Position numbers and translations under genes: made by a program
Part shown: positions 14,127 to 36,777 of the stretch, in pieces
Layout of the letters: the number at the start of each line of letters is the position of its first letter
Numbering within the stretch: position 1 is the stretch's first letter
The notes under the pieces: model-generated
What the model was told of the DNA's origin: nothing
The model's database searches: none
Seen by the model: only the letters and a program-made list of their open reading frames with translations
Source of the DNA: an uncultured Kiritimatiellota bacterium
GTDB taxonomy: Bacteria > Verrucomicrobiota > Kiritimatiellia > RFP12 > UBA1067
NCBI GenBank assembly: GCA_934675625.1
Contig: CAKURH010000005.1
Coordinates: 125 to 64,124, forward strand
Length of the DNA: 64,000 nucleotides
Direction of reading: 5' to 3'

Positions 14127-14190
14127 GTTCTCCTTCGTTCGTTTGATTTGCGTTGAGTTCAATAAGCACACGCCATGTGCCTGTGCGGGA

Positions 14191-14199
14191 ATTATAGCA
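14191..14199 (-). promoter_or_regulatory. Extended -10 promoter (TGCTATAAT) for the 14126->1 glycan operon
   Basis: Reverse complement of attatagca. Lies about 60 nt upstream of the 14126 start, in the divergent intergenic region. Confidence 0.55.
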
Positions 14200-14277
14200 T
14201 AACCTGTCCTGTGCGCGCTCAAAATTGCATATTGGTTTAAGCACAAAATCACTATCGAATCAAGACAATGTGAAATA

Positions 14278-14286
14278 TGGTATACT
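14278..14286 (+). promoter_or_regulatory. Extended -10 promoter (TGGTATACT) for the XylR-like regulator; implies a leaderless mRNA
   Basis: tggtatact is followed by 7 nt (ttgcccc) and then the ATG at 14294. No Shine-Dalgarno sequence is possible. Confidence 0.55.
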
Positions 14287-14293
14287 TTGCCCC

Positions 14294-15463
14294 ATGAAAC
14301 GAAGGGCAAAGAAGAGAACTGTCGTCGTCGTCCTGTGGCTTGCGGGGTCTGCGGGGCGCAAGCAGCTGACGGGCATATTGCAGTACGTCAACGCCGGGCA
14401 TCCCTGGAGCATCCGGCTTGTCACCGACCCCAAGGACTTTACGGACGAGGCCATCCGTCAGGCCGAAGCCGACGGCGTTCACGGCTTTCTCGTCCATGCC
14501 AATGCGCAGGTCGGCACCGCTCTCGCCGCCTCCACGGTCCCCACCGTCCTGCTGGACTTCCCGCCGCCCGCCCTGCGGTCGCGCAAAAACGCCATCGCCC
14601 TCATTCTCGACGGCGACGAGCAGATCGGGCGGACGGCCACCGACTACTTCCTTAAGCTCGGCAACTTCGCCTCTTTCGCGTTCGTGCCGGACGAGCAGAA
14701 CCGAGGATGGTCCCGCCTGCGCGAACGCGGCTACAAAGCGGCACTTGACGCAGCTGGTCGGGACTGTCTGATCTACGGACGCGGCAAGGGGAACTTGTCC
14801 GACTGGCTCAAGACGCTGACGCGCCCGACTGCCGTCTTCACGGCCTATGACCTGCGGGCGCAGGAGACCATTGAAGCCTGCAAGGCGGCGAAGCTGTCGA
14901 TTCCGGATCAGGTCGCCGTCCTCGGTGTCGACAACGACGAGCTCATCTGCGACTACACGACGCCGTCAATCTCCAGTATTCGGATCGACCATGAGACACT
15001 GGGCGCAGAAGCGGCCAAGATGCTTGACCGCATGATGCGCACACCGTCTGCCGCCAGCCCCAAGCCTGTCTTCATGCCGGTGGGAGAAGTCGTCGAACGG
15101 GAATCGACCGCGCCCACGCCACCGGCCGCGCATCTGGTCGCCCGTGCGTTGGCCTATATCCATGCCCATGCGGCGGAGTGCATTTCTGTGTCCGATGTCG
15201 TTCGGCATCTCGGCATTTCGCGCCGCCTCGCAGACCGCCGGTTCGGAGCCGCCACCGGCACGTCTCTCCGCCGCGCCATCGAAGACCGCCGCCTCGCGCT
15301 CGTGAAGGAACGGCTCGCCTCGACGCATCTTCCCATCAACAAGATCTCGCGCCTGTGCGGCTACGCCAACATCCAGCGGCTCAAATACGTCTTCAAGACC
15401 CGATTCGGCATGTCCATGAGCACCTGGCGGTCGCGCGAACACACGGACTGCCCTCAACCTTAA
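14294..15463 (+). CDS. XylR-type hybrid regulator (LacI-like periplasmic-binding fold sensor + AraC-family HTH)
   Basis: The C-terminus has a dual AraC HTH (ISVSDVVRHLGISRRLADRRF ... INKISRLCGYANIQRLKYVFKTRFGMS). The N-terminal ~270 aa are sugar-binding-like. Divergent from the glycan operon. Confidence 0.8.
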   Translation: MKRRAKKRTVVVVLWLAGSAGRKQLTGILQYVNAGHPWSIRLVTDPKDFTDEAIRQAEADGVHGFLVHANAQVGTALAASTVPTVLLDFPPPALRSRKNAIALILDGDEQIGRTATDYFLKLGNFASFAFVPDEQNRGWSRLRERGYKAALDAAGRDCLIYGRGKGNLSDWLKTLTRPTAVFTAYDLRAQETIEACKAAKLSIPDQVAVLGVDNDELICDYTTPSISSIRIDHETLGAEAAKMLDRMMRTPSAASPKPVFMPVGEVVERESTAPTPPAAHLVARALAYIHAHAAECISVSDVVRHLGISRRLADRRFGAATGTSLRRAIEDRRLALVKERLASTHLPINKISRLCGYANIQRLKYVFKTRFGMSMSTWRSREHTDCPQP

Positions 15464-16748: not shown

Positions 16749-16822
16749 TGGAGGTGGGAAGCGGAGTTGAACCGCTGTAAGCGGATTTGCAGTCCGCGAC
16801 CTAACCGCTCGGCCATCCCACC
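16749..16822 (-). tRNA. tRNA-Cys (anticodon GCA), CCA encoded
   Basis: Minus-strand sequence GGTGGGATGGCCGAGCGGTTAGGTCGCGGACTGCAAATCCGCTTACAGCGGTTCAACTCCGCTTCCCACCTCCA. It has a 7-bp acceptor stem GGTGGGA/TCCCACC, anticodon stem GCGGA/TCCGC with loop CTGCAAA, a T-loop GGTTCAACTCC, and discriminator U. Confidence 0.9.
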
Positions 16823-16916: not shown

Positions 16917-17651
16917 TCAGACCATGCCGCCGTTGACGGAGATGACCTGGCCGGTCACGTAGGACGACTCGTCGCCCGCCAGCCACGCGACGCAGTTCGC
17001 GATATCCGCACCCGTGCCGAACCGCTTCAGCGGAATCGACTCGGCGTACTGCTTCTTGAGCTCGTCAGGAAGCTGGTCGGTCATCGCCGAGACGATGAAG
17101 CCCGGCGCGACGGCGTTGCAGCGCACCTTGCGCGAGCCGAGCTCCTTCGCGACGGTCTTCGTCAGCGCGATCACGCCGCCCTTCGACGCCGTGTAGTTCG
17201 CCTGCCCCGCGTTGCCCGTGATGCCGACGACGGACGTGATGTTGACGATCGACCCGCCGCACGGCACGCCGTCCGCCCCCTTGTTCTTCATCATCGGACG
17301 CGCCACCGCGCGCGTGAAGAGGAACGTGCCCTTCAGGTTGATGTCGACGACGAGATCCCAGTCCGCATCGCTCATGCGCATGAGCAGCCCGTCCTTCGTG
17401 ACGCCCGCGTTGTTGACGAGCACGTCAATCCGCCCGAACTTCTCCAGCACTTCCTTGACGCAGGCGTCGACGTCCGCCGAACTCGAGACGTCGACCTTGC
17501 GGCAGTGGGCCGCGCCCTCGCACGACTCGATCGACCGCGCGACCGCGACGACCGTCGCGCCCTCGGCGGCGAGCTTCTTCACGATGGCCGCGCCGATGCC
17601 GCGCGACGCCCCGGTCACGATCGCGACCTTGCCCTTCAGCGTCTCGCCCAT
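16917..17651 (-). CDS. fabG: 3-oxoacyl-[ACP] reductase
   Basis: Motifs KGKVAIVTGASRGIGAAI and the SDR YxxxK region (YTASKGGVIALTK). Follows fabD with a 1-nt gap. Confidence 0.9.
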   Translation of the reverse strand: MGETLKGKVAIVTGASRGIGAAIVKKLAAEGATVVAVARSIESCEGAAHCRKVDVSSSADVDACVKEVLEKFGRIDVLVNNAGVTKDGLLMRMSDADWDLVVDINLKGTFLFTRAVARPMMKNKGADGVPCGGSIVNITSVVGITGNAGQANYTASKGGVIALTKTVAKELGSRKVRCNAVAPGFIVSAMTDQLPDELKKQYAESIPLKRFGTGADIANCVAWLAGDESSYVTGQVISVNGGMV

Positions 17652-17652
17652 G

Positions 17653-18573
17653 TCACAGCACCTCCAGCGTGGCGTCCAGCGACGCGAGGTCGGCGACGTT
17701 CGCCGTCTTCAGCGCCGCGTCGATCTTCTTGACGAGGCCCGACAGCACCTTGCCGGGGCCGAACTCGACGAACGTGTCGCAGCCGAGCGCCTTCGCCGCC
17801 GCGACGTCCGCCGCCCAGTTCGTCGTGCCCGTGACCTGTTCGAGCATGAGCGCCTTGATCGCGCCCGGATCGGCCGCATGCGGCTGGCCCGTCACGTTCG
17901 AGAGAACAGGAAACTTCGGCGCATGGAACGTGATCCCGTCAAGGACGGGCGCGAGCTTCTCGCGCGCCGGGGCCATGAACGGCGAGTGGAACGCGCCGGC
18001 CGTCGCAAGCGGAATCGCCCGCTTGATGCCGAGCTCCTTCGCCTTCACCGCCGCCGCCGCGATCGCGTCCTTCGAGCCGGACAGCACCTGCTGCGCCGCC
18101 GAGTTGACGTTCGCGACCGTGCAGCCCGTCGCCGCGCAGAGGGCCTGAAGCTGGTCAGGCGTCGCGCCGACGATGGCGATCATGCCGGACGGCGTCGCCG
18201 CGCAGGCCTCCTGCATGAAGCGGCCGCGCGCCTCCAGCACCTTCAGCGTCGAGTCGAAGTCGAGGACACCCGCCGCGCAGAGCGCACCCCACTCGCCGAG
18301 GGACAGGCCCGCCGCGCAGGCGAAGTCCGTCGGACGCCGCTTCTGGAGCGCCGTGTAGGCCGCGTAGCTCGTCACGAAGATCGCGGGCTGGCAGACGTTG
18401 GACTTCGTCAGCTCCTCCGCCGGGCCCTCGAAGCAGATCTTCTTCAGGTCGAAGCCGAGGACGGCGTTCGCCTTGTCGAAGAAGCCCATGATCTCGGAAT
18501 CCGCCTCGGCGAAATCCTTGCCCATGCCGGGGACCTGTGCGCCCTGTCCGGCGAAAATGCAGCACATGCTCAT
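17653..18573 (-). CDS. fabD: Malonyl-CoA:ACP transacylase
   Basis: Motifs MSMCCIFAGQGAQVPGMG and the active-site GLSLGEW. Start chosen at the conserved N-terminus; the track ORF has 46 spurious extra codons. Confidence 0.9.
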   Translation of the reverse strand: MSMCCIFAGQGAQVPGMGKDFAEADSEIMGFFDKANAVLGFDLKKICFEGPAEELTKSNVCQPAIFVTSYAAYTALQKRRPTDFACAAGLSLGEWGALCAAGVLDFDSTLKVLEARGRFMQEACAATPSGMIAIVGATPDQLQALCAATGCTVANVNSAAQQVLSGSKDAIAAAAVKAKELGIKRAIPLATAGAFHSPFMAPAREKLAPVLDGITFHAPKFPVLSNVTGQPHAADPGAIKALMLEQVTGTTNWAADVAAAKALGCDTFVEFGPGKVLSGLVKKIDAALKTANVADLASLDATLEVL

Positions 18574-18638
18574 TCTTTCTTTATCCTTTCTGGTTTCAGC
18601 CTTTTCAGAAATCTTTACTTCTGTTTTTCGTCTTGTGT

Positions 18639-18647
18639 AGTATACCA
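18639..18647 (-). promoter_or_regulatory. Extended -10 promoter (TGGTATACT) for fabD-fabG
   Basis: Reverse complement of agtatacca. About 65 nt of purine-rich leader lies before the fabD ATG. Confidence 0.55.
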
Positions 18648-18694
18648 CACCCCGCGCAGGGGCACAATGCCCGCCCTCGCGACCGTTGCGGACG

Positions 18695-20332
18695 TCATCC
18701 CCGGTAGCCATCGAGCACCGTCTGCTTCGGACGCTTGGACTGGCGGGGATAGTCGAGCGTGTAATGGAGGCCGCGCGACTCGTGCCGCTTCTGCGCGCTC
18801 TTCACGATCAACTCCGCGCAGACCGCGAGGTTGCGCAGCTCCAGCGTGTCCGGCGTGACGAGGTAGCGGAAGTAGTAGTCGTGGATCTCGCGGCGAATCA
18901 TGCGCAGACGGTGCGCCGCGCGCGCAAGCCGCTTGTTCGTGCGGACGATGCCCACATAGTCCCACATCAGGCGGCGAATCTCGTCCCACATGTGCGAGAC
19001 CAGCACCGCCTCGTCCGGCGGCACGGCGCTCCCGATCTTCCAGTCGGGAATGAGCGGCTTCCGCACGTCTTCCCCTCTTCCTTCTTCCTTCTTCCTTTTT
19101 CCCTCTTTCTCCCAAAACCTCTCCGGGTGCGGGCCGAGCCGGGCGGCGGTCAGGCGCGCGCAGACGAGGGCCTCCATGAGCGAGTTGGACGCAAGGCGGT
19201 TCGCGCCGTGCAGACCCGTGCAGGCGCACTCGCCGACGGCGGAGAGCCCGCGAATCGAGGTGCGGCCGTCCGTCGTCGCCTGGATGCCGCCGCAGGTGTA
19301 GTGCGCGGCGGGGACGACGGGGATGAGGTCCTTCGCCATGTCGATGCCGAAGGAGAGGCACTTCGCGTAGATGTTCGGGAAGCGCGCCTTCAGGTAGGCC
19401 GCCCCTTTCTTGCGGATGTCGAGGAACATGCAGTCGTCGCCCGTGCGCTTCATTTCGGAATCGATCGAGCGCGCGACGATGTCGCGCGGCGCGAGCGAAC
19501 CGCGCGGGTCGTACTTCTTCATGAACGCCTTGCCGTGCTTGTTGACGAGGACGGCCCCCTCGCCGCGCACGGCCTCGGAGATGAGGAAGCGCTTCGCCTG
19601 CGGATGGTAGAGGCAGGTCGGGTGGAACTGGATGAACTCCATGTTCTCGATCTTCGCCCCCGCGCGCCACGCGAGCGCGATGCCGTCGCCCGTCGCCGTG
19701 TCGGGATTGCACGTGTAGAGGTAGACCTTGCCGCAGCCGCCCGTCGCGAGAATCGTGTTCGGCGAGCGGATCGCGTAGATCTCGCCCGTCGGCTTGTCCA
19801 TGACGTACGCGCCGACGCACCGCTTCTCGCCCTTGAGGCCGATGCGGTTGGACATGACGAGGTCGATGACGATCGTCTGCTCGCGCACCTCGATCGCCTT
19901 CTCGCGCTTCACGCGGCGGATCATCGCCGCCTCGCACTTCTCGCCCGTGATGTCGCCGGCGTGGAAGATGCGCCGCGCGCTATGGCCGCCTTCGCGCGTC
20001 AGGTCCCACGAGCCGTCATCCTTCTTCGCGAAGCGGACGCCGCAGTCGATGAGGTCCTGAATGCCGGCGGGCGCGTTCTCGCAGATCTCGTGGACGACCT
20101 CGCTCTTGCCGAGCCACGCGCCGGCGATCATCGTGTCGCGCGCGTGTTTGTCGAAGGTGTCCTTCGGATCCATCACGCAGCAGATGCCGCCCTGCGCGAA
20201 GTTCGAGTTGCAGTCCTGAAGCCGCGCCTTCGTCACGACGACGACCTTGCCGTACGCGGCGAGGTGCAGCGCGCTCATGAGGCCCGCCATGCCGGACCCG
20301 ACGACGAGATAGTCGCAATCGACCGTCTTCAC
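18695..20332 (-). CDS. nadB: L-aspartate oxidase
   Basis: Motifs DYLVVGSGMAGL (FAD fold), NSNFAQGGI, RFHPT-type (IQFHPT) and GLHGANRLASNSL. GTG start with GGAAGGAG 6 nt upstream. The longer track ORF would begin on top of the promoter. Confidence 0.9.
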   Translation of the reverse strand: MKTVDCDYLVVGSGMAGLMSALHLAAYGKVVVVTKARLQDCNSNFAQGGICCVMDPKDTFDKHARDTMIAGAWLGKSEVVHEICENAPAGIQDLIDCGVRFAKKDDGSWDLTREGGHSARRIFHAGDITGEKCEAAMIRRVKREKAIEVREQTIVIDLVMSNRIGLKGEKRCVGAYVMDKPTGEIYAIRSPNTILATGGCGKVYLYTCNPDTATGDGIALAWRAGAKIENMEFIQFHPTCLYHPQAKRFLISEAVRGEGAVLVNKHGKAFMKKYDPRGSLAPRDIVARSIDSEMKRTGDDCMFLDIRKKGAAYLKARFPNIYAKCLSFGIDMAKDLIPVVPAAHYTCGGIQATTDGRTSIRGLSAVGECACTGLHGANRLASNSLMEALVCARLTAARLGPHPERFWEKEGKRKKEEGRGEDVRKPLIPDWKIGSAVPPDEAVLVSHMWDEIRRLMWDYVGIVRTNKRLARAAHRLRMIRREIHDYYFRYLVTPDTLELRNLAVCAELIVKSAQKRHESRGLHYTLDYPRQSKRPKQTVLDGYRG

Positions 20333-20453: not shown

Positions 20454-21617
20454 TTAAAACGAGAACGCCTCCTGTTCATACCAACGGCCCTGCTTGAGCA
20501 GAATGGCAATCTCATCGACATAGGGCATGTGCGGGGACTCCGCCAGAAAGCGTTGGGTGCGCATCTGCTGCGCTTCCGTCAACGGGATTCCGGTGATTTC
20601 TCCGGGATTGCGGACAACCTCCGCTGCGAGGACACGGCGTATCGTGAGGCATCGCCCCACCAATGCGGCAATGCGGAAACCGTCGAGATCGGCATCGCCA
20701 GCATGTTCGGCCGTCACGCCCACCGTATCGAGCATACGCAGAAGACGTTGGACGGCGTAATTCGGGTACCCTTCGGTGTAGAGCGCGGGACGCCTCAGCG
20801 TGACGTAACGCGCAAAGGGCGCGGCGTTCTCGCTTGTGATCAACGACCTGTCATCGCCCTGCCATGCGACCGAACGAATGCGGCCCACCGTTTCGCTCGG
20901 AAGCGTACAAGCCAGCCCCGCCGCAAAGAGCCGCATGGGAAAGTCAAACGTCTCGCCCGCATCCGTCGTGAAGACGAGCGGCGCAAAGAACGTTACAAAA
21001 CTCGTGTAGGGATTCTCGATGATGCCGTATGTTCCGAAAAGCGTTCGCTCGTCGATATCGCGTTCCTCCACGGCTGCCAACATCAACGCGAGCTGTCGCC
21101 GCAGGGGGCCTGTCCGCAGGGCCTTGCTGTCGTTGAGCCAGTCGGATCCCAACTGGGAAAGGGTCTTCGCCTCACCGACACCCCTCTTACGCACATGATG
21201 AAACACGCCCAACAACAAGCGCCTCCACGCCACACGATGAGCAGGGCTCCGCAAGAACCGCATCACCTCCGGCATCGTCTGCAAGGCGTCAATCAACGTC
21301 CGTGCCTCCGGCTCACGCCAAGCGAGGCGCGTCAGGAATGTCTCGGGCGATTCCGCCGCCGTGTCTTCCCGCGCCAGCCCCACTGCGGAAATGACCTCTT
21401 GCCACGCCAACGGTTCACGCCAGCGCGGCGGAAGCACCCCCGAAACCGCGCCATCCGCCTTCCGCGTCAAGGGCGTTCCCAAGAGACGTTCCAACTCGCC
21501 CTGTGCCGCATAATCCAGATCTCGCACCGTAAAGTGAGCGGGCAAGGGCTTTCCCTGCAACGCCCGTTTCGCCATCCGAATCAAAAACGGACGGAGCAAC
21601 GCATTCATTTGTGTCAT
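20454..21617 (-). CDS. jetD: Wadjet JetD (Toprim-type nuclease subunit)
   Basis: 387 aa and last gene of a JetABCD-shaped operon. The C-terminal Toprim-like acidic motifs are LITSENAAPF and HAGDADLDGFRI. The N-terminus (LLRPFLIRMAKRAL..FTVRDLDYAAQGELERLLG) resembles TIGR02679-type JetD. Confidence 0.8.
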   Translation of the reverse strand: MTQMNALLRPFLIRMAKRALQGKPLPAHFTVRDLDYAAQGELERLLGTPLTRKADGAVSGVLPPRWREPLAWQEVISAVGLAREDTAAESPETFLTRLAWREPEARTLIDALQTMPEVMRFLRSPAHRVAWRRLLLGVFHHVRKRGVGEAKTLSQLGSDWLNDSKALRTGPLRRQLALMLAAVEERDIDERTLFGTYGIIENPYTSFVTFFAPLVFTTDAGETFDFPMRLFAAGLACTLPSETVGRIRSVAWQGDDRSLITSENAAPFARYVTLRRPALYTEGYPNYAVQRLLRMLDTVGVTAEHAGDADLDGFRIAALVGRCLTIRRVLAAEVVRNPGEITGIPLTEAQQMRTQRFLAESPHMPYVDEIAILLKQGRWYEQEAFSF

Positions 21618-22257
21618 TCCCTTTTGCTTCTTTTCATCTGCCCACCCAATGCCACCTCTTCAAGGGCCGCTTGCTCGCGGCGGAGTTCGGCAAGGAGCTG
21701 TTCCTCGGTCGGCAAGACGAGCTTGTATTTCGCGGCAAAGATCCGCTTCTCGTTGAGCGGCAAGGTATAGCGGACAAGATCCGTTCCCTTGTCCGTGCAG
21801 AGAACAATGCCGATGGGCGGATTGTCACCCGAAGTTCGCGCACACTCCACAGCGACTTCCGACATTCTTCGGTGTAATACTGTCGAGCCTCCTCGTTCTC
21901 GACCGTGATCAAAAGGCGATAATGGCTCCAACTCAATTGTTCACACAGTGTCTGAACTTTTGGAAACGAAAGATAGAACTTTCGCATGGCAAAGAGATTC
22001 ACGCGCGTAAAGCCCGCGCCGAACTCGGCCGTCAACTTTTCAGCCAATGCGTCAATGAGTCCATCGCCATACGTTGCTTTCGCAGAACCGCCCTGCTGTT
22101 CGACAATCATCTTGCCGACGAGCCAGTACGCCTTGACCATCGCGGCATTCGCCGTCTTGTGTACATACCGTCGCGCTTCGACAATAACTTCGCGCACTTG
22201 CGCATAGAAAGCCGATTCGTTCCGCGCCAGACTTGATCCTTTGTTTTTTCTCATCAC
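21614..22257 (-). pseudogene. Decayed DUF1016/YhcG-family PD-(D/E)XK nuclease gene (internal deletion plus frameshift) embedded between jetC and jetD
   Basis: Frame A (from 22257) encodes the YhcG N-domain (VKAYWLVGKMIVEQQ..FTRVNLFAMRKFYLSFP..LSWSHYRLL..WSVRELR). At about 21830 the homology jumps to another frame, which carries only the extreme C-terminus (GDNPPIGIVLCTDKGTDLVRYTLP..AAKYKLVLPTEEQLLAEL). The nuclease core of roughly 150 codons is absent. Confidence 0.7.
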
Positions 22258-22276
22258 CCTATTGCCTCCTTATAAA

Positions 22277-25200
22277 TCAATTGGTCTCCGCCAACACCTT
22301 CATGCCAACGTCCGAATCTGTCGGCGTACCGAAGAAATCGCCTTGCGTGTTTACGTTTCGCCAGACAATCGGACTCAGATGAACGTCAAGATTCTCGTCC
22401 TTGATGACGATGAGCGAGACCGAATGGCTGATCTCGCGCTTGACGCCATCCTGATCGGGCGAGGAGACGAACAATTGGAGCCCAAGGTCGTCGGCAAACG
22501 CGAGCAGCTGATCTCGTCGCGCCGCATCAATGCCATAGAACGCCTCGTCAAAGAGCAGTGGCGCACATTTCGGAGGGTCATTGCGCTCACCGCCATGATA
22601 CAGGAACTCCGCCACCGTCAAAATGAGCAGATAGTTTGGCACGGCCTGTTCGCCACCCGAACCGAGGCTCTTGACCTTTCGGTCGATGATGCGACCCTCC
22701 TCGTTCTCCGTCAGCACCTTGAGCTGGAAGCGGAACCACCGCCGATAGTCGAGAATCTCTGGAATCTGGTCGATTTCGGCGTTTAGGATTTCGTCTCGGT
22801 GTTCTGCTAACGTCTCGCGCAGTTCATCCTTGTCCTCCCCTGAACCTACATTCACGTTGCGTATCTGCTTGACGAACCGCTCGTATGCGGGAACGGGCGT
22901 CAACTCGAATGTGTAGCGGTTCGACCCAAAGCGGCGCCCCGCCAGTTTTTGCTGAATCCGCCGTGCCAAGTTCTCAATCTGCAGAAGATCACGATAGAGC
23001 CGATTCATCACCTCGCCCATGAAGATGCGCTCGAAGACTTCGCGGCTCTTCTGGTTGATGGCACCCTTCAATTCAGCGAGCCTTCGCGTCTCATCCGCCA
23101 GAACCTCGTCCAGTTCGCTTCCGCGCCGATCTGCAAGCCGATTCGCCTCGGCATCGAAGGAAAACGAAAACGTCTCGCCCTTCTGCTCGCGAATCATTCG
23201 CCGTATTTCCGTCTCGGCCACACGCGCATCGCCAATGCACTGCTCACGCAAGGCCGCAAAATCCGTCGCCTGCACACAGGCGGGGCAAAGCCGCGCGGCA
23301 CCATCCGCGATGGACTCGCCCTCTTGCAGGCCATTCGCAAACGCCTCAGCCGACGCCGCCGCGCGTGCCTGTGCGGACGCCGCTTCGGCTTCCTGTGCTT
23401 GACGCATCTTCGTCAGGGTCTCCAGCCGTCCGCGCATCACACCGATTTGCTGCTGGATTCTTTGCGCAGCCTCATCCTTTTGGTGCAGGGTCTTTGTCGC
23501 CGCCGCAATCCGTTTCTCCAGCGATGCGTCGACGCCCTCGGCCCGCATCTTGAGCCGAAGGTCATCCAATTCTTCCTGGACGTCCGCCACCTCCCGCGCA
23601 CGCTCCTCGGCGACGGTCTGCGTCCGCGCCCGCAACGTCTCCTGCGTCGCCTCCTGTTCCCGTGCGCGGCGTACGTTCTCGACGGCTTCGCGAATCTCGT
23701 TCCGCACCGTCTCGACGACGGCCATCAGGCTGCGAACGGCTCGTTCGGACGCCTCGGCGGCCTGCAAATCCCTCTCCGCCGCCTTCTGCGCACGCCGGGC
23801 AACCGCCAAGTTCTCCTCGGCTTCGCGCTGCTGCCGCGCCAGTTCTGCCGCGCGCGCCTTGCGTCCGATGAGCCGGGGCCGCCCGTTCGGCAACGGGGCC
23901 GCACGGTCGCGGAACGCCCATGTCTTGATAGACAAGAACGTTCCGTCCTGCGGTGCGCCACTGGACGCCAATTGCCGCGCCAGCAACCTGACGGCCACAG
24001 GATCGGACTCTTCAAACGAGATGAAGTTTCCAAGCCACGGCGTGAGCGCCGTGACATCCCCGCTCACTTCTTCACACACGGCGACAGCAACAGAAGTTTC
24101 CTCCTGCCACGCGAGCTGACGGACGCGATCCGCCTCCTTCTCGTCCGTCACAAGCGTCGCCAAAAATGCCTCACCCACCAGTTGCTCCAGCAGCGCAAGA
24201 TGCCGCGCGTCACAGCCGGACGCCGGTTCCAGAAGCTCATACACGCTCCGTACCGAGAGCATATTCTGCCGAAGTGTCGCCTGAAGATCCGTAAAGCCGG
24301 GAATCGCAGGGACATTCTCCTTGCGCGTCCGCAACTGCGCACAGACCTTCTCGGCCTCCTCCGTTGCCGTCGCCGCATCCGTGGCGCGTTGTCGCGCCTC
24401 GTAGCTTCGCGTCATCCGCTCGTCACGAGCCTGACCGAGCGTCGGGCCAAGGGCCGCAAACGCCGGCGCACACGCGGCCGTCTTGTGCAGGGGATCTGCC
24501 GCGAAAAGCGCGTCCGTGAGTTCACCGCACGCAAAATCCGCTTCGCGGCTCGTTTTCTGAATCGTCTCGCCCGCGCGCCGCAAGGTGTCCGCACACAGGG
24601 ACACGGCCTGTACACGGGCCTTAGCCGCCATTCGCACACGGGCCGTCTCGTCGGAAAGGCGCGCCGCCTCCTCGTCGGCACGACGTCGGCATTCGACCAG
24701 ACGCGCCACGACGGACTTCTCACGCCCGAGAAGCCCCGTCGCATCCTTCTGCCGGAGATCGTCCAGCCGTTCGCGCGCGCGCTCCGTCTCGGCCCACGCC
24801 GCCTGAGCGGACGATTCGAGCGCCTTCACTTCCGATTGGCCCGCTGTCTCGGCAACCCCAAGCCTTTCGGCTTCCGTTGCCGCGCGGACACGCGCCGCTT
24901 CCGCTTCGGCCCACGCGATGACGGACGTCTGAAGCCGTGCATTCGCAAGCTGGTCTCGCCGACGTCTGAGATCCGTCAAGTAACGGGCTCGCTCGTCAAT
25001 CTGGTCGAGCCGCCCCTTGCTTTCCTCCAGTTCGCGCAAGCCCGTGAGAAGCGGCTCGAACGTCTCGCGCGCCGGATCTTCCAAAAGTTGCCGAAAGAGT
25101 TCATCGTAGTTCGTTGCGCGCGCGGCGATCTCCCGATAGGCCTTGCCCGTCCGCAAGAGCTTGCAGACATCCGCATACTTGGATTCGCCACCAAAGAGAC

Positions 25201-25771
25201 GCTTGGCAACCGCCTCGCGATAATCGCCGATGTGGCCAAAGTATTTGCCGCCCACAAAGTTTCCGCCCGTCAACGCACGCTTGAACTCGGCCTGTGTTGC
25301 GGCGCGGAGACGACCTTCTTCCGCAATCGTGAGCGGCAAGTCTCGAACCGGGACAGACGCCACGCCGCCCCAACTCTGGTAGGCGATATCCAACCCTTCC
25401 GCCGAAAAACCGACCGCGAACGAGACGACCTTGTTCGCATCCGTCATCGACCGCAGTTCAACGGCCGCGTAGGTGATGCCCGTCTCGCGCGCTGCGCGGC
25501 CCGTCACGGCGTTGTAGCGGAGGACGATGCCTTGGATTGTGCGTCCACCGGCATCCTTCGCCCCCGCGACACGTGCGGCGGAATTGAATTCCATGTCGCG
25601 TCCGGCAGAGAGGACAAGATGAATCGCATCGAGAAGCGTCGTCTTGCCGGATCCGTTGTCGCCCAGCAAAAAGAGATGCCCGCCTTCAGGAATGTCAACG
25701 GTCGTGGTGCCAAGATTGTGAAACTCCACAAGGCGAACGGCCGTGATGCGGTAGTTTTCCGAAACTTTCAT
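22277..25771 (-). CDS. jetC: Wadjet JetC (SMC-like ABC ATPase)
   Basis: Start MKVSENYRITAVRLVEFHNLG overlaps the jetB stop (ATGA). Walker A is LLGDNGSGKTTLLDAI. About 700 aa of Ala/Glu/Arg-rich coiled coil follow. The C-terminus has signature/Walker B (LGSGGEQAV, PLLFDEAFYGID). Confidence 0.85.
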   Translation of the reverse strand: MKVSENYRITAVRLVEFHNLGTTTVDIPEGGHLFLLGDNGSGKTTLLDAIHLVLSAGRDMEFNSAARVAGAKDAGGRTIQGIVLRYNAVTGRAARETGITYAAVELRSMTDANKVVSFAVGFSAEGLDIAYQSWGGVASVPVRDLPLTIAEEGRLRAATQAEFKRALTGGNFVGGKYFGHIGDYREAVAKRLFGGESKYADVCKLLRTGKAYREIAARATNYDELFRQLLEDPARETFEPLLTGLRELEESKGRLDQIDERARYLTDLRRRRDQLANARLQTSVIAWAEAEAARVRAATEAERLGVAETAGQSEVKALESSAQAAWAETERARERLDDLRQKDATGLLGREKSVVARLVECRRRADEEAARLSDETARVRMAAKARVQAVSLCADTLRRAGETIQKTSREADFACGELTDALFAADPLHKTAACAPAFAALGPTLGQARDERMTRSYEARQRATDAATATEEAEKVCAQLRTRKENVPAIPGFTDLQATLRQNMLSVRSVYELLEPASGCDARHLALLEQLVGEAFLATLVTDEKEADRVRQLAWQEETSVAVAVCEEVSGDVTALTPWLGNFISFEESDPVAVRLLARQLASSGAPQDGTFLSIKTWAFRDRAAPLPNGRPRLIGRKARAAELARQQREAEENLAVARRAQKAAERDLQAAEASERAVRSLMAVVETVRNEIREAVENVRRAREQEATQETLRARTQTVAEERAREVADVQEELDDLRLKMRAEGVDASLEKRIAAATKTLHQKDEAAQRIQQQIGVMRGRLETLTKMRQAQEAEAASAQARAAASAEAFANGLQEGESIADGAARLCPACVQATDFAALREQCIGDARVAETEIRRMIREQKGETFSFSFDAEANRLADRRGSELDEVLADETRRLAELKGAINQKSREVFERIFMGEVMNRLYRDLLQIENLARRIQQKLAGRRFGSNRYTFELTPVPAYERFVKQIRNVNVGSGEDKDELRETLAEHRDEILNAEIDQIPEILDYRRWFRFQLKVLTENEEGRIIDRKVKSLGSGGEQAVPNYLLILTVAEFLYHGGERNDPPKCAPLLFDEAFYGIDAARRDQLLAFADDLGLQLFVSSPDQDGVKREISHSVSLIVIKDENLDVHLSPIVWRNVNTQGDFFGTPTDSDVGMKVLAETN

Positions 25772-26436
25772 TCGGCGACCTCCTGTTCCGTTTTCGCCGA
25801 TTCCACTGAGCCCGAAATCGGCTCGGCGAGCTGCGCCGCCTGATAGTGCCAAAGGGCCGGCAGACACTCCCAGATCGTCTCCGCCTCGCTGACAGATTCG
25901 TCGGCGGACGGCTTCATCTTACGTAGGAAGCGATAGCGTTCCAACGTCGGCATCAGGCCACGCAGGATCTGCCGCACCTTCTCGTCCGTATACAGCGCGC
26001 GCTTCTCCGGCAGCAGTTCGCGGAACCGCGCTGCCGCGTATTCAAGCCAGTCGCCGAAGCGAATGCGCAGGTTGTCGCGATCATCCGCCGCCACGCCCTG
26101 TTCGCGAGCCTCCCTCTCAAAGAACTCCAACAGCAGCAGAAAGCCAAGACATTCATCACGGCGCGTGAAGCCGAACATGTCCCGATTCGGTGGCGTGATC
26201 GCCTCGTTGTACCATTTCGGCTTGTAGAGACGTGCGCATTTCGCATCCATCACGAGCGTCCATCCAAAGCACTTGTCGAAGAACGCCGCGAACGCCTGAC
26301 GATACCGCTGCAGCACGAGAAAGGTGCGTTCGTCGTCCGTCTTGTAGAAATACGGCGACTCCATCAGGATGTTCAGGGCCGTCTGCACGAGGACGGATGT
26401 CTGGTCGCCTCGGTCGAGCAGTTCTTCAATCTTCAT
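25768..26436 (-). CDS. jetB: Wadjet JetB (small KITE-like subunit, DUF4194-sized)
   Basis: 222-aa acidic protein in the canonical position between jetA and jetC. Overlaps jetA by 11 nt and jetC by 4 nt. Assignment rests on position and size. Confidence 0.7.
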   Translation of the reverse strand: MKIEELLDRGDQTSVLVQTALNILMESPYFYKTDDERTFLVLQRYRQAFAAFFDKCFGWTLVMDAKCARLYKPKWYNEAITPPNRDMFGFTRRDECLGFLLLLEFFEREAREQGVAADDRDNLRIRFGDWLEYAAARFRELLPEKRALYTDEKVRQILRGLMPTLERYRFLRKMKPSADESVSEAETIWECLPALWHYQAAQLAEPISGSVESAKTEQEVAE

Positions 26437-28036
26437 GTTCGGATTCCTTTTGCGCTTTCGCGAGAACCAAATCGTTGCAGGTCAACATACACCCGACACC
26501 AGTCAACGTCGCCGCTTCGGACAGTTCTCGCGCGGTGACATCAAGATAGCGGCGGCCTTTCTCGCCACGGCCAAGGCACGTGTATTCAATCAACTGGACA
26601 ACATTCGGAAAATCGTCGAACGTCTGCGGAACGAGGGACGAGAGTCGCGTTGTCGATTCTTCGGGATAAAGGGCGCATGTTTTGAGCCAGTCTTTCAGTC
26701 GCGCACCACGCACCTGGGAAATGGAGGCGATATCCGCCTTTTCGCCGACCGTTCGCGGCGTAATCCATGTGACGGTCTTTCTCGCCTTGACCTTCGCAGA
26801 GGCTTTCGGAAGCGGATGCACCGACTTCTCGCCGCCGGGACGGATCTGTGCATCGCCCCGCATCGCCGCCGTCTCCAGCAACCGGCGAAACCAGCCGTAG
26901 GGAACGACATCCTCCTCCATTTTCGCAAGTTCGGCAATCCGCACGCCAAGGTCTTCGAGACGGTGGTTGCGGCGTTCAAGTTCACGCAGTTTTGCGTTGA
27001 GCTTGCCCCAGACCTTGCGTGCCGAATCGACGATGCGTTGCATCAAATCGACAAGTGCGCCGTCGGGTGCATAGAATCGGGCGGCATCGGAAAGAATCGC
27101 GGCCGCATCGGGAATGCGCATGGACGCAATGTGGCGGAACTTCGACGCCTCGGCACGAAGGACGTCCGCACACATTGCCCAACGCGCCGCCTGATTCGGA
27201 CGCCGCAGTTCCGTGAGATCCTGGACAATCTCCTCGCGCAAGACACCGAAGCGCCGCCCGAATCGGTCCAGGAAGAGCGCGAGTTCATCGACAACAGGCT
27301 TGGCCGCGTCCGCCGCGAACGATTCCGCACCGAACGAGAGAAGCCGCAGGTTCAAGGCCTGCAATGTCCGCGCAGTCGCATCGACATAGACACGCATCTG
27401 CTCGACGCGGTAGAGGACATCACCGGCGGTATCGGCATCCGTCCCCGTCGGCGCCACCGTGCGGAGTTTGCGCCGAAGTTCATGTAGCAGAGAACACTGG
27501 AGGTCGAGGAGATTGCCGGTGATGTCGCCCCCACCCGCATCCAACGGACGGTCTCGCCGTTCCTCCAACCACGCGACAAATTGGGCGGCCTCTTCGCAAA
27601 GCCGATAACGGAACTTCGTGCGACGGTTGTCCCGATAGCCACGCAACCGCTCCTTCTCGATTCGTTCGGTGACAAGCCCCCAGTCCTTCAGCTGGCGAAG
27701 ATCGCTCTTGAGCGTCAGTTCGGCAAACGGATCGAGCGTTTCGCCGCAGACGGCGCGCGCAATGTCCTCATGAAGCGGTTCGGGTTCGTGATGCTGACGG
27801 AATTCGGCGAACGCCCGCAGAATCGCCACATACTCGACGGCGCGATCAGCGGCAAGAAGACTTCCAAGCTCCTTGATCTTGCCGCCGACCCATTCAGCGG
27901 TCGAGGCGACCAGCGGCGAATCGATGAGCCGCGCCGATTCGGACGCAGCAGACGCATCCGGCTCACGCGAAACGCCCACCCGCGCCTCCGCCGCCGCAAA
28001 CAAGTCATCCGACCAATTGTCCCGCCCCCTTTTCAT
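26426..28036 (-). CDS. jetA: Wadjet JetA (kleisin-like subunit)
   Basis: 536 aa and first gene of the operon. The N-terminal winged-helix-like segment (AVEYVAILRAFAEFRQHHEPEPLHEDIARAV) resembles the TIGR02677/DUF2397 type. Assignment rests on synteny plus weak motif memory. Confidence 0.7.
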   Translation of the reverse strand: MKRGRDNWSDDLFAAAEARVGVSREPDASAASESARLIDSPLVASTAEWVGGKIKELGSLLAADRAVEYVAILRAFAEFRQHHEPEPLHEDIARAVCGETLDPFAELTLKSDLRQLKDWGLVTERIEKERLRGYRDNRRTKFRYRLCEEAAQFVAWLEERRDRPLDAGGGDITGNLLDLQCSLLHELRRKLRTVAPTGTDADTAGDVLYRVEQMRVYVDATARTLQALNLRLLSFGAESFAADAAKPVVDELALFLDRFGRRFGVLREEIVQDLTELRRPNQAARWAMCADVLRAEASKFRHIASMRIPDAAAILSDAARFYAPDGALVDLMQRIVDSARKVWGKLNAKLRELERRNHRLEDLGVRIAELAKMEEDVVPYGWFRRLLETAAMRGDAQIRPGGEKSVHPLPKASAKVKARKTVTWITPRTVGEKADIASISQVRGARLKDWLKTCALYPEESTTRLSSLVPQTFDDFPNVVQLIEYTCLGRGEKGRRYLDVTARELSEAATLTGVGCMLTCNDLVLAKAQKESEHED

Positions 28037-28042
28037 GGGGAT

Positions 28043-28051
28043 ATTATAGCA
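28043..28051 (-). promoter_or_regulatory. Extended -10 promoter (TGCTATAAT) for jetABCD; implies a leaderless jetA
   Basis: Reverse complement of attatagca. Only 6 nt (ATCCCC) separate the -10 hexamer from the jetA ATG at 28036. Confidence 0.55.
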
Positions 28052-28075
28052 TAATGCGCATGAAAGCTGATCCGT

Positions 28076-29503
28076 TCACGCGCGATCCTCCGGCTCCTCC
28101 TCCAAGACGATGGCGGCTGTGCGGCCGGTCGACGACGCCGTGCCGATTGGGTTCACCGGATCGAAGTTCGCGCCGAGGACGACGGCGCGGCGCGGCGACG
28201 ACGTGTCGCCCGACACCCACGGACGCGCCTCTGACAGGAGATACGCGCTGGAGGCGAGATCGGAAACCGTGTCGTCGGGATGCTCCGCCGGAACCTGCGG
28301 CGGCAGCACCTTCTTGTGCAGGGCGAGCGCGACCTTCACCAGTCCCGCCGCCATCGCCGCGCGCAGCGTGTGCCCGATGTTGCCCTTGACGGAACCGACG
28401 CCCACGAGCGGCGAACCCGGCGTGTGCGCGCCCCACAGGAGGCGAATCGCCTCCAGCTCGCGCGCCTCGGCGTCCTTCAGCCCCGATCCGTCGGCCTCGA
28501 CGAGCCCAATCGAGCGGACGGGAACGCCGGCGCGCGCGGCGGCTTCGGCGAAGACGGCGGACGGATCGTTCGCCGGATTGTGCCCAATCGCGACGCCGCG
28601 CACGAGCGCGTAGATCCGGTCGCGGTCACGCAAGGCGTCCGCCCGGCGCTTCAGGACGAAGAACGCACCGCCTTCGCCGGGAATCGTGCCGTCCTGCTCC
28701 TGCGCGAAAGGATGAAGCTCGTTGCGCAGGGAGAAGGTCGTCTCGCCCGAAAGCCCCTCCAAATAGGCGCGCGCAAGCGGTGGCGTGAGCGCGCCCACAA
28801 GGGCGATGTCGGCGCGACCCGACACGAGGTCGTCCATGGCATCGGCGAGCGTCGCCGCGCCCGTAAGGAGCCCGGCGTCCATGATCGTCGCCGCGCCGTC
28901 GAAGCCGCATTCGCGCGCGATCCATGACGCCAGGCGATAGCCCGCACCCATCAGGAACGAGACCGCGTTCGGCGGCGGCAGCGAGTCGAGCAGCTTGGCC
29001 TTGACGGCCTCCAGCGCCTCTTCGGGCGCATGCGGGAAGAACCGCCGCACGACGTCCAGCGTCTGGTCGAGGATGGCCGTGTGCTGCAGCCAGTTCACCG
29101 TCGAGGCGTTGAACGGCGGCGCGTAGCCGAAGCGCACCGTGCCCCGGACGGACGGGTTCGCGTGCGGCTTCATGCCCGCATCGGCCAGCGCGTCGAACGC
29201 GAGCTGCGTCGCGAAGTAGAGATCCTGGTTCTCGCCCGCGTTCACCTGACGCGGAAAGTTCTGCATCGAGGGCACGCAGGCGTAGAGGTCGCCAAGCTGG
29301 CCGAGGCGCGCCGGATAGGGGCGCGCAAAGACGTTCTTCTGCCCGAACGGCAGTTCAGCCTCCGGGCCGGGCGGCGTCAGCAGCGCCCTGCGCGCCATGA
29401 CCGCCTCCCAGAGGGCGGCGGGCGACGGACAGCCGGCGAAGCGGCACGACATGCCGACGATGGCGACGGCGCCGCTCGCGCCCAGCTGCAGGGAGGTGGC
29501 CAC
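28076..29503 (-). CDS. Stand-alone PKS-type ketosynthase-like protein with degenerate active site
   Basis: KS fold motifs AIVGMSCRFAG, DGTIPGEGGAFFVLKR and GSVKGNIGHTLRAAMAAG. However, the catalytic Cys position reads Leu (IMDAGLLTG versus DTACSS) and the first catalytic His reads Asp (VEADGSG versus EAHGTG). Confidence 0.8.
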   Translation of the reverse strand: MATSLQLGASGAVAIVGMSCRFAGCPSPAALWEAVMARRALLTPPGPEAELPFGQKNVFARPYPARLGQLGDLYACVPSMQNFPRQVNAGENQDLYFATQLAFDALADAGMKPHANPSVRGTVRFGYAPPFNASTVNWLQHTAILDQTLDVVRRFFPHAPEEALEAVKAKLLDSLPPPNAVSFLMGAGYRLASWIARECGFDGAATIMDAGLLTGAATLADAMDDLVSGRADIALVGALTPPLARAYLEGLSGETTFSLRNELHPFAQEQDGTIPGEGGAFFVLKRRADALRDRDRIYALVRGVAIGHNPANDPSAVFAEAAARAGVPVRSIGLVEADGSGLKDAEARELEAIRLLWGAHTPGSPLVGVGSVKGNIGHTLRAAMAAGLVKVALALHKKVLPPQVPAEHPDDTVSDLASSAYLLSEARPWVSGDTSSPRRAVVLGANFDPVNPIGTASSTGRTAAIVLEEEPEDRA

Positions 29504-29509
29504 AGAACC

Positions 29510-30916
29510 TTACATCAGCGCGTACTTCGCGATGAAGACGACCGTCAGCACGTACATGATCCAGTGGACCTTCTTCGCCTTGCCGGCGATGAGGTTGACG
29601 AGCGTGTACGAGATGACGCCGGCCATGATGCCGTCGGAAATCGAGTAGGCGAACGGCATGAACGCGACCGTCAGGAACGCGGGAATCGCCTCGCTCGCGT
29701 CGCTGAAGTCGATCTCGGCGACGGACGAGAGCATCAGGTAGCCGACGACGATGAGCGCGGGCGCCGTCGCGAAGCCCGGCACTGCGAGAAAGATCGGCGC
29801 GAAGACGATCGCCGCGAGGAAGAGGACGGCCGTCGTCACGCCCGTGAGGCCCGTCTTGCCGCCGACCATCACGCCCGAGGCGGACTCGACGTAGGTCGTC
29901 GTCGTGGACGTGCCGAACACCGCGCCGACCGAGGTCGCGATCGCGTCCGCGCAGAGCGCGCCCGAAATGCGCGGGAGCTTTCCTTCCTTCGTGAGGAAGC
30001 CGCCCTTCATCGAGACGCCGATCAGCGTCCCCAGCGTGTCGAAGAGGTCGACGAAGAAGAACGCGAACATGACGACGAAGAAGTCGAGGCCCTTGACGAG
30101 CGCCCAGCCCGTGTTCGTGTCGCCTTTGTGCGTCCAGCCCGCCGGGTCAAAGACGGCGCAGCAGGTCTGCTTGAACTGCGCGAACGAGTCGGTGATGCCC
30201 GCGAACGAAAGCGCCGGGTAAAGCGAGAAGTAGCCCTTCTCCGCGTCCGGCACATAGACGCCCGCCGCCTGCGCGACCATGCCGAGGCTCCACGTCACGA
30301 AGATGCCGTAGAGGATCGCGCCCTTGACGTGACGCGCCATCATGACGCCCGTGAGGATCGTGCCGAGGATCGCGAGCACCGCGCAGATGCCCTGCGTGTG
30401 GAACGGCGCGTTCTTGAAGCTCATGAGGCCCACGAGCACCGCGTCGTTGTTGACGATGATCTTCGCCGTCTGCAGCGCGATGAAGCAGATGAAGAGGCCG
30501 ATGCCGGCCGCCACCGCCTTCTTCAGCGTGAACGGAATGCAGTCGAAGATCGCCTCGCGGACGGGCGTGAGCGAGAGCGCGAGGAAGACGAGGCCTTCCA
30601 CGAACACCGCGAGAAGCGCGAACTGCCAGCTGTACCCCATGCCGAGACAGACGCCGAAGGTGAGGAAGGCGTTGAGGCCCATGCCCGGCGCAAGCGCAAA
30701 CGGATAGTTCGACATGAACGCCATGAGCAGCGTGCCGACGACGGCCGCCAAGCACGTCGCGACGAAGACGCCGCCGCGCGGAATGCCCGCGATCGAGAGG
30801 ATGTTCGGGTTCACGGCGAGGATGTACGCCATCGTCATGAACGTGGTGAGGCCCGCGACGAGTTCGGTCTTGACCGTCGTCTTGTTCTCGTCAAGCTTGA
30901 ATAGTTTCTTGAGCAT
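29510..30916 (-). CDS. NCS2/AzgA-family purine (hypoxanthine/guanine/adenine) permease
   Basis: The N-terminus MLKKLFKLDENKTTVKTELVAGLTTFMTMAYILAVNP is characteristic of this family. Polytopic membrane protein. Confidence 0.85.
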   Translation of the reverse strand: MLKKLFKLDENKTTVKTELVAGLTTFMTMAYILAVNPNILSIAGIPRGGVFVATCLAAVVGTLLMAFMSNYPFALAPGMGLNAFLTFGVCLGMGYSWQFALLAVFVEGLVFLALSLTPVREAIFDCIPFTLKKAVAAGIGLFICFIALQTAKIIVNNDAVLVGLMSFKNAPFHTQGICAVLAILGTILTGVMMARHVKGAILYGIFVTWSLGMVAQAAGVYVPDAEKGYFSLYPALSFAGITDSFAQFKQTCCAVFDPAGWTHKGDTNTGWALVKGLDFFVVMFAFFFVDLFDTLGTLIGVSMKGGFLTKEGKLPRISGALCADAIATSVGAVFGTSTTTTYVESASGVMVGGKTGLTGVTTAVLFLAAIVFAPIFLAVPGFATAPALIVVGYLMLSSVAEIDFSDASEAIPAFLTVAFMPFAYSISDGIMAGVISYTLVNLIAGKAKKVHWIMYVLTVVFIAKYALM

Positions 30917-36158: not shown

Positions 36159-36777
36159 TCAGGTGTCATCCCTTCGCCCCAGGACAAGCGTCGCGTTGCT
36201 GCCGCCAAAGGCGAATGAGTTCGAGAGAATCGTGCGCACGGGCGACGTGTCGCCGACGACGGGAATCCGGAACGGCGCGAGCGCGGCGTCCACGGGCGCG
36301 GCGACGTGCGGCGGCAGCCCCGCCCCCCGGCGCAGGGCGATCCAGCCCAGCGCGGCCTCGATCGCCCCCGCCGCACCGAGGCAATGCCCCGTGAGCGGCT
36401 TCGTCGACGAGACGGCGACCGCGTCGCCGAAGACGCGGCGCACCGCCGCGCGTCGCCCCGCCCACGATCACCGCGTCGCTCAGGCCGTTCGCCAGAAGCC
36501 GCCGCGCCGAGGCGAAGACCTTCGCGGACGACGAGCACGCCGTCGAGACGCACCACGCGGGGCCGCCGAAGCCGCCCTTCGCCTTGACATACGCGGCGGG
36601 ATACGCCATGTCGATGCGGTCGGGGTTCGCCGTGAACTCCTCCATCGTCGAGTTGCTCGTGCCGAAGAGGTTGCGCTCCGTCTCCGCGACGCCGCAACCG
36701 AGGGCCGAGACGACCCCCAGATCCGTCAGGGACACGGGAAACGTCCGGCTGTCCACGTCCGAATGCTCGCGCGTCAC
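36159..36777 (-). pseudogene. Remnant of a FabF/FabB-like beta-ketoacyl-ACP synthase (two or more internal deletions and a frameshift)
   Basis: Frame 1 (GTG at 36777, GTGA overlap with the aldolase stop) gives VSLTDLGVVSALGCGVAETERNLF|GTSNSTMEEF..GGPAWCVSTACSSSAKVF..DAVIVGGA. At about 36445-36455 homology jumps frame straight to the C-terminus RRVFGDAVAVSSTKPLTGHCLGAAGAIEA..SNSFAFGGSNATLVLGR. The total is about 205 codons against about 410 for an intact KS. Confidence 0.65.

Follow-up and report, generated by a model that had tools for sequence, protein, structure and literature searches.

Ketosynthase (KS) homologs that do not condense are already known. Cys-less KS domains of the KSQ and chain-length factor (CLF) type, which keep both catalytic His residues, can still decarboxylate, and KS-acyltransferase (KS-AT) didomains are built so that the linker and the post-AT peptide lie packed on a dimer of KS domains. 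For a pseudo-KS domain in PfaB, a role as structural scaffold or as an element that positions the acyl carrier protein (ACP) has been put forward (PMC12895367). The enediyne polyketide synthase (PKS) CalE8, a PKSE, has KS, AT, ketoreductase (KR), dehydratase (DH) and phosphopantetheinyl transferase (PPTase) domains (PMC3107222). Here we analyze a stand-alone KS-like protein, KS', encoded at 28076-29503 on the minus strand of a 64,000-nucleotide stretch of DNA, hereafter called the window, from an uncultured Kiritimatiellota bacterium (contig CAKURH010000005.1). The gene lies just upstream of a Wadjet anti-plasmid operon. We regard it as reasonably probable that KS' is a non-condensing scaffold subunit of a conserved KS'/AT'-DH'-PPTase pair that was split from its partner at a hot spot for defence islands. 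We hold the identity of KS' and its independence from Wadjet with high confidence; the mechanism by which it would serve as a scaffold for the PPTase is drawn by analogy, and our confidence in it stops slightly short of even.

KS' is a protein of 475 residues encoded by an intact open reading frame (ORF) with a GTG start and an intact C-terminus (...EEEPEDRA). Pfam recognizes both halves of the thiolase fold (ketoacyl-synt N, PF00109, 2e-20; ketoacyl-synt C, PF02801, 5.5e-19), the best matches among solved structures are KS domains of type I PKSs (7zma, 4.7e-39; mycocerosic acid synthase (MAS), 1e-30), and the top NCBIfam model is the polyunsaturated fatty acid synthase PfaA. These matches bear out the description of a 475-residue type I PKS-like KS that had been given in an earlier note made from this DNA alone. 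Active-site positions were placed by HMMER alignments of the window protein to active KS domains of solved structures. The position of the nucleophilic Cys is occupied by Leu212 (codon CTC, 28868-28870, minus strand; IMDAGLLTG aligned under (V)DTACSSS) and that of the first catalytic His by Asp338 (codon GAC, 28490-28492, minus strand; VEADGSG under EAHGTG); the second catalytic His is kept as His378 (codon CAC, 28370-28372, minus strand; GNIGHT under SNIGH). KS' therefore has the fold of an active beta-ketoacyl synthase and lacks both the Cys of the DTACSS motif and a complete pair of catalytic His residues. The earlier note had reached the same three assignments by manual alignment, and had argued that no acyl-thioester could form and that Leu in place of Gln sets the protein apart from CLFs. 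The HMMER alignments agree, placing no Cys or first His at the catalytic positions, and the substitutions are fixed in the close family. We conclude that KS' is, as read from its sequence, a catalytically dead KS-fold protein that would be unable to form an acyl-thioester or to condense.

A search of 5.8 billion proteins returned at least 120 clusters of KS' (73-91% identity, ~467 aa) from gut and rumen metagenomes, and the few named members among the close homologs are labelled Kiritimatiellae 'hypothetical protein'. In an alignment of 120 close homologs, position 212 is Ile, Met, Leu or Val in every one (120/120), and Asp338, Lys373 and His378 are invariant. The mean column identity of the family alignment is 79%, with the C-terminus of the window protein identical to that of its relatives, and orthologs bearing the same substitutions are spread across GTDB species at 63-97% identity. 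The family is compact: an exhaustive HMMER search over 1.8 billion representatives found a few stand-alone relatives at 42-52% identity, past which the search reaches only giant modular PKSs, whose KS domains match at ~30%. The distant relatives of KS' have Gly, Ser, Phe, Ala or Thr in place of the Cys and keep the first His. The environmental clade has His at the first His position (an A/T/G-H-H pattern), whereas the gut/rumen clade has Asp. Because the distant relatives also lack the Cys, its loss is old; the change from His to Asp is, on these alignments, a fixed trait of the gut/rumen clade.

The usual genomic neighbour of KS' was established from a survey of 160 orthologous loci, 80 from GTDB species representatives (KS' identity 63-97%) and 80 from JGI metagenome contigs (39-73%). 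In about 144 of the 160, KS' is directly followed by a gene for a partner protein of ~1100 aa; among the GTDB loci, 78 have enough sequence downstream to be informative and about 70 of these show the partner, as do 74 of the 80 JGI loci. In most cases the stop codon of KS' overlaps the start codon of the partner gene, and the two are translationally coupled. The pair recurs in Kiritimatiellia from the gut and from environmental samples, and it is also present in a lineage whose KS' is only 49% identical. From its N-terminus, the partner matches a KS-AT linker (CurL-like_PKS_C / RhiE-like_linker), Acyl_transf_1 and PS-DH, with a C-terminal ACPS domain, that is, a PPTase. Comparison with solved AT domains and with the family alignment indicates that the AT nucleophile motif GHSxG has become G-F-A-G-G and the AT catalytic His motif HAFH has become R-P-F-N-T, both invariantly. 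The DH motif LxxHxxxG reads D-Y/F-A-L-G, without its catalytic His. The PPTase shows no variation in its motifs G-V-D-V-E and F-W-C-A-K-E-A-x-S-K, and the PPTase region comprises two ACPS-like halves, as in the Sfp type, and matches the PPT of the fungal fatty acid synthase (FAS) alpha chain (4v58). An AlphaFold2 model of the partner (predicted local distance difference test score, pLDDT, 70) aligns over ~900 columns with the KS-AT-DH(-KR) modules of CalA3, MAS and PsoA. From sequence and model alike, KS' and its partner look like one type I PKS/FAS module that has been split at the boundary between KS and linker. The KS, AT and DH sites are all predicted to be dead in the pair, and the PPTase is its sole active site that is predicted to be intact. 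ACP and KR domains are missing from the module, and neither the window nor the orthologous loci show a second KS or an ACP next to KS'.

In public databases, KS' is named 'hypothetical protein' and the partner 'PPTase superfamily protein'. We found no description in the literature of a stand-alone KS' paired with an AT'-DH'-PPTase, including under Kiritimatiellae PPTase and fused AT/DH/PPTase, and among known pseudo-KS proteins such a split arrangement with a PPTase seems to be a new form. The pair is surrounded by varied housekeeping genes, including tRNA synthetases, and not by ordinary lipid clusters. In the 49%-identical lineage, a panB gene (ketopantoate hydroxymethyltransferase, pantothenate/coenzyme A (CoA) pathway) immediately precedes KS' (L102:1129-1947), and in another lineage panB is only a few genes away from KS' (L001:18984-19760), a proximity that fits the PPTase/CoA theme. 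The partner of the 49%-identical lineage (L102:3374-6682) keeps the AT Ser (GYSGG) and has lost the AT His, and one rumen-type KS' (L162, ORF ending at 6475) does carry Cys where the nucleophile belongs (ALDGGCLSG, 'C-D-H'), so that active-site decay is uneven across the family.

Comparison with described systems helps to define what is distinctive here. The PfaB pseudo-KS shares with KS' a KS fold from which the Cys-His-His triad is missing, and its position is immediately before an AT. In PfaB this AT is active and part of the same protein, and the pseudo-KS is poorly conserved, whereas KS' is separate and highly conserved, its AT is dead as well, and a PPTase lies at the end of the module; no Pfa genes were found near KS'. 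CLF (KS-beta) and KSQ resemble KS' as Cys-less KS homologs that act as partner or starter instead of condensing. In these proteins Gln replaces the Cys and neither His has been lost, where KS' has Leu, Ile or Met and an Asp in place of the first His; moreover, CLF has a neighbouring KS-alpha as its partner and KSQ sits in a loading module with AT-ACP, and KS' has neither. The KS0 domains of trans-AT PKSs are also type I PKS-like and non-condensing, and the top PDB match of KS', 7zma, is a trans-AT-type PKS. KS0, however, keeps its Cys, can accept a chain, has lost the His of HGTGT and belongs to a multidomain PKS, whereas KS' is Cys-less and stand-alone. On the partner side, CalE8 and the fungal FAS alpha chain (KS-PPT) likewise have a PPTase attached to a KS/AT/DH synthase. 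Those enzymes are active and include ACP and KR; here KS, AT and DH are dead, ACP and KR are missing, and the module is divided between two genes. For PKS and FAS enzymology, this would be a module with dead KS, AT and DH and a live predicted PPTase, maintained at 60-97% identity across a bacterial class.

In the window, KS' is found without this partner. Its native upstream neighbour is an NCS2 (Xan_ur) permease gene (29510-30916, minus strand), separated from the KS' start by 6 nt, and this synteny is conserved with relatives that still carry the partner gene. The loci L012-L014, whose KS' is 88% identical, share with the window the upstream order PfkB, AhpC, AMP-binding, uracil phosphoribosyltransferase (UPRTase), permease, KS'; after KS' they continue with the partner gene, HK and TMP-TENI, and have no island. 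The breakpoint was mapped by comparing the window with L012, L001, L004 and L009-L011. Homology to relatives ends 11 nt past the KS' stop and gives way to AT-richer DNA and then jetA. What is left of the partner gene would be a remnant of ~13 nt, GTGAACGGATCAG (28067-28079, minus strand), which resembles the first codons of the L012 partner, ATGACGGAACTCG, whose start overlaps the KS' stop; a tblastn search of the 64-kb window with the partner protein gave no match.

The strain-variable breakpoint falls between 28067 and 28066. In L009-L011, KS' is 100% identical to that of the window and the sequence diverges right after 28067 into unrelated DNA, each of these contigs ending 65-151 nt after the KS' gene. 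We considered whether these tails might represent an 'empty site' allele and rejected this idea; they match nothing elsewhere in the window and so represent different cargo. In the sequence past the breakpoint (L009:11429-11576), a converging gene ends in ...EEFFAYLVRDLRQVDCAA (stop). From these comparisons, the break in the KS' operon lies just downstream of the KS' stop, at a hot spot for defence islands whose content differs between strains. We propose that the break would have left just those few codons of the partner and that the Wadjet island, together with a promoter-like element, would have filled the site. In this instance, an insertion hot spot happened to destroy a conserved operon.

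The partner itself has probably moved elsewhere in the genome of the window species. Four loci, L096-L099, carry a partner gene without KS', in the order CstA, SpoIIE (a SpoIIE/PP2C phosphatase), 58 nt, partner, purN (e.g. L097:3041-6346), and part of the 3' end of a KS' gene survives in the 58-nt spacer. Measured against five reference species, these partners show identities and synonymous divergences (dS) that run parallel to those of the window KS' against the same species, and in the close KS' lineages P0002 and P0004 the partner is still attached. L096-L099 are consistent with the relocated partner of the window species or of a sister lineage, an assignment for which the divergence pattern is the sole support. 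KS' also lacks an adjacent partner at L055, L065/66, L070/73, L082 and L159, and in a few species the gene that follows it encodes a sulfatase, an Fe-ADH or a 2046-aa G8 protein. The partner-less state is, in the loci surveyed, peculiar to the window species and these few others.

Loss of the neighbouring gene raises the question of whether KS' in this species is a functionless orphan in decay. That neither the locus nor any other part of the 64-kb window contains the partner gene would fit such a fate. Yet the KS' ORF is intact and its C-terminus matches that of its relatives, and the identical KS' protein occurs on contigs from many samples. Relative to the conspecific locus L015, which itself has no partner at this site, the ratio of nonsynonymous to synonymous divergence (dN/dS) of KS' is 0.09 over a dS of 0.17, and lineages with an intact operon show values of 0.12-0.13. 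An intact ORF with a dN/dS of 0.09 indicates that KS' is still in use and under purifying selection, and we consider decay very improbable.

How might a dead KS subunit be useful? Because the KS dimer packs against the linker and post-AT peptide in KS-AT didomains, we propose a scaffold role for KS'. KS' would dimerize and bind the linker and post-AT region of its partner, as a KS does within a PKS module, and could thereby form a scaffold or docking platform for carrier proteins on which the partner PPTase would act. If this is true, the pair would be a clean case of pseudoenzyme domains kept as a scaffold, and it might be the main route of carrier-protein activation in abundant gut and rumen bacteria. 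A more specific version, which we regard as possible and distinctly less than probable, is that KS'/AT'-DH'-PPTase is an undescribed housekeeping PPTase holoenzyme, a dimeric platform that would present carrier proteins (e.g. the FAS protein AcpP) to the fused Sfp-type PPTase. An entire type I PKS/FAS module would in that case have given up its three active sites and yet be maintained by strong purifying selection across the Kiritimatiellia. Were this so, the window species would be a natural split-operon experiment, one that shows the subunits to be able to act in trans.

It is also conceivable that KS' retains a non-canonical catalytic or ligand-binding role together with its partner and without any involvement of Wadjet, for example in binding of acyl- or malonyl-ACP, or in decarboxylation or hydrolysis through Asp338, Lys373 and His378. 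The invariance of these three residues in the 120 homologs speaks for such a role, as does the clade-wide fixation of Asp at a position where the environmental clade keeps both His residues. In addition, a dN/dS of about 0.1 is very high conservation for a mere scaffold, and the decarboxylating KSQ and CLF types are a reminder that a Cys-less KS domain can be active, albeit with both His residues. On the other hand, position 212 ranges over Ile, Met, Leu, Val, Ala, Asn, Thr and Gly, which is unexpected for a catalytic residue, the dead AT and DH sites of the partner and its lack of an ACP domain leave no visible route of substrate delivery, and the PfaB precedent favours scaffolding. We therefore judge a catalytic or ligand role for KS' to be unlikely, although it deserves to be taken seriously.

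Several observations weigh against the scaffold account that we prefer. The three invariant residues, in a family with such high column identity, could signify ligand binding or catalysis. The occurrence of KS' without an adjacent partner in several species means that it can at least be expressed separately. The relocation of the partner within the window species is something that we infer, and the metagenome samples that contain L096-L099 differ from those that contain the window strain. Finally, an AlphaFold2 prediction of KS' from a 36-sequence family alignment reached a pLDDT of 39 and was unusable, so the KS fold is assigned from sequence matches.

We turn now to the Wadjet operon next to KS'. 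The combined presence of JetA, JetB, JetC and JetD homologs identifies it, by domain content, as a real Wadjet system. All genes lie on the minus strand: jetA (DUF2397, JetA2-type; 26426-28036) and a short jetB of 222 aa (DUF2398/DUF4194/MksE-like; 25768-26436), both matched by Pfam, NCBIfam and PADLOC; jetC, encoding an SMC-like ATPase (SbcC_Walker_B and AAA_29; 22277-25771), whose called start at 25771 overlaps the jetB stop; and jetD (DUF2399/TIGR02679; 20454-21617), matched by NCBIfam, Pfam and PADLOC. Between jetC and jetD lies a gene for a 207-aa protein with DUF1016_N only (PADLOC candidate PDC-S02; 21634-22257). The four Jet proteins match the described JetABCD anti-plasmid system, with which a KS-like part is not conserved. 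We know of no described Wadjet system that has a KS-like component.

The earlier note had suggested that KS' might be an accessory or regulator of the defence locus and had pointed to conserved co-occurrence with jetABCD as the way to find out. Our survey does not support this idea: of the 160 loci from other genomes, a single one, L015 (KS' 97% identical), has jet genes after the KS' ortholog. L015 comes from the same species as the window, and outside this species the survey shows no such linkage. It is the only such case among the GTDB representatives, and the JGI contigs contain none. The note had also allowed that orthologs might prove to have no conserved Wadjet linkage and to sit in ordinary lipid clusters; the first part is what we find, whereas the orthologs turn out to lie in housekeeping contexts instead. 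A search of the literature found no paper that joins Wadjet and a ketosynthase.

An accessory, sensor or regulator of Wadjet, co-transcribed with jetA, would be expected from some features of the locus. The jetA start at 28036 lies 39 nt after the KS' stop on the same strand, with no terminator-like site between them, and the arrangement is seen in two diverged strains of the species, the window strain and L015. Set against this are the 159 other loci in which KS' does not stand next to jet genes, the lack of any PADLOC model match for KS', the presence of other cargo at the same site in strains with an identical KS', and the membership of KS' in an older conserved operon with the PPTase gene. 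Codon usage in the island is foreign, whereas that of KS' is native, and jetA has its own candidate extended -10 box. We regard a Wadjet role for KS' as scarcely credible. Since the island was inserted at the breakpoint of the older KS'/partner operon, the position of KS' beside Wadjet is, on comparative grounds, an accident of insertion with no functional coupling. A gene just upstream of jetA on the same strand can thus stand outside the Wadjet system, which is a caution for work on defence systems.

The foreign character of the island is evident from G+C content at third codon positions (GC3), which is 0.62-0.76 in the jet and DUF1016_N genes as opposed to 0.87-0.95 in KS', permease, AMP-binding, NadB-like, fabD and fabG genes. 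From this contrast, together with its absence from relatives that have the same upstream synteny, we conclude that the low-GC3 defence island (minus strand) was horizontally acquired and spans about 20454-28066. A search of the island borders for att-like direct repeats, a tRNA or an integrase gave no convincing repeat, and the only tRNA (Cys, 16749-16822) is off the border. In L015, Wadjet occupies the same site (L015:11469-18444 versus 20454-28036 in the window). The jet genes of the two strains differ by a dS of 0.60-0.72 with 75-95% amino acid identity, as opposed to a dS of 0.11-0.17 and 97-99% identity for the flanks, and this much greater divergence points to recombination that replaced one allele by another, or to a long-standing polymorphism. 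L015 does not have the DUF1016_N insertion, its jetC-jetD gap being 20 nt, and carries a NYN and Zn-ribbon gene after jetD.

The island probably brings its own promoter, to judge from the candidate extended -10 box TGCTATAAT at 28043-28051 (minus strand), 6 nt before the jetA ATG. This leaderless-type promoter candidate was found with a custom pattern and is a match to consensus only; a scan of 27600-30100 for consensus sigma-70 promoters and terminators found nothing. TGnTATAAT boxes 5-9 nt before an ATG also occur at the starts of long ORFs at 35209 (minus strand) and 48206 (plus strand) in the window, and promoter-like TATAAT boxes lie near the purN start codon in L097 and near that of the 2046-aa gene in L055. 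The repetition of such boxes near ATGs hints at frequent leaderless transcripts in this lineage.

Two statements of the earlier note about the surroundings of KS' hold in part. KS' does lie between a permease gene and jetA, as it had said, but the purine specificity it had given to the permease is doubtful; because the permease gene follows a UPRTase gene, uracil/xanthine is more likely. Its statement that no PKS/FAS partner is adjacent is true of the immediate neighbours, although an AMP-binding enzyme is encoded 2.2 kb upstream and fabD (17653-18711) and fabG (16917-17651), both on the minus strand, lie just beyond the island. The fabD-like AT was considered as a possible partner of KS' and rejected, as it is an ordinary stand-alone malonyl transacylase. 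Without the island, the distance from KS' to fabD would be about 1.8 kb. The segment 16917-20332 (minus strand) contains a NadB/fumarate-reductase-type flavoprotein gene, fabD and fabG, with the tRNA-Cys gene next.

Elsewhere in the window, a 94-aa ORF at 36159-36443 (minus strand) resembles the C-terminal part of a FabF/FabB-type KS (STKPLTGHCLGAAG ... NSFAFGGSNATLVL; Pfam KS_C 4.5e-7). Situated between aldolase and EamA genes, it has the look of a gene fragment and was set aside as unrelated to KS'. A 1265-aa ORF at 10512-14309 (minus strand) has a signal-peptide-like N-terminal region and no Pfam match.

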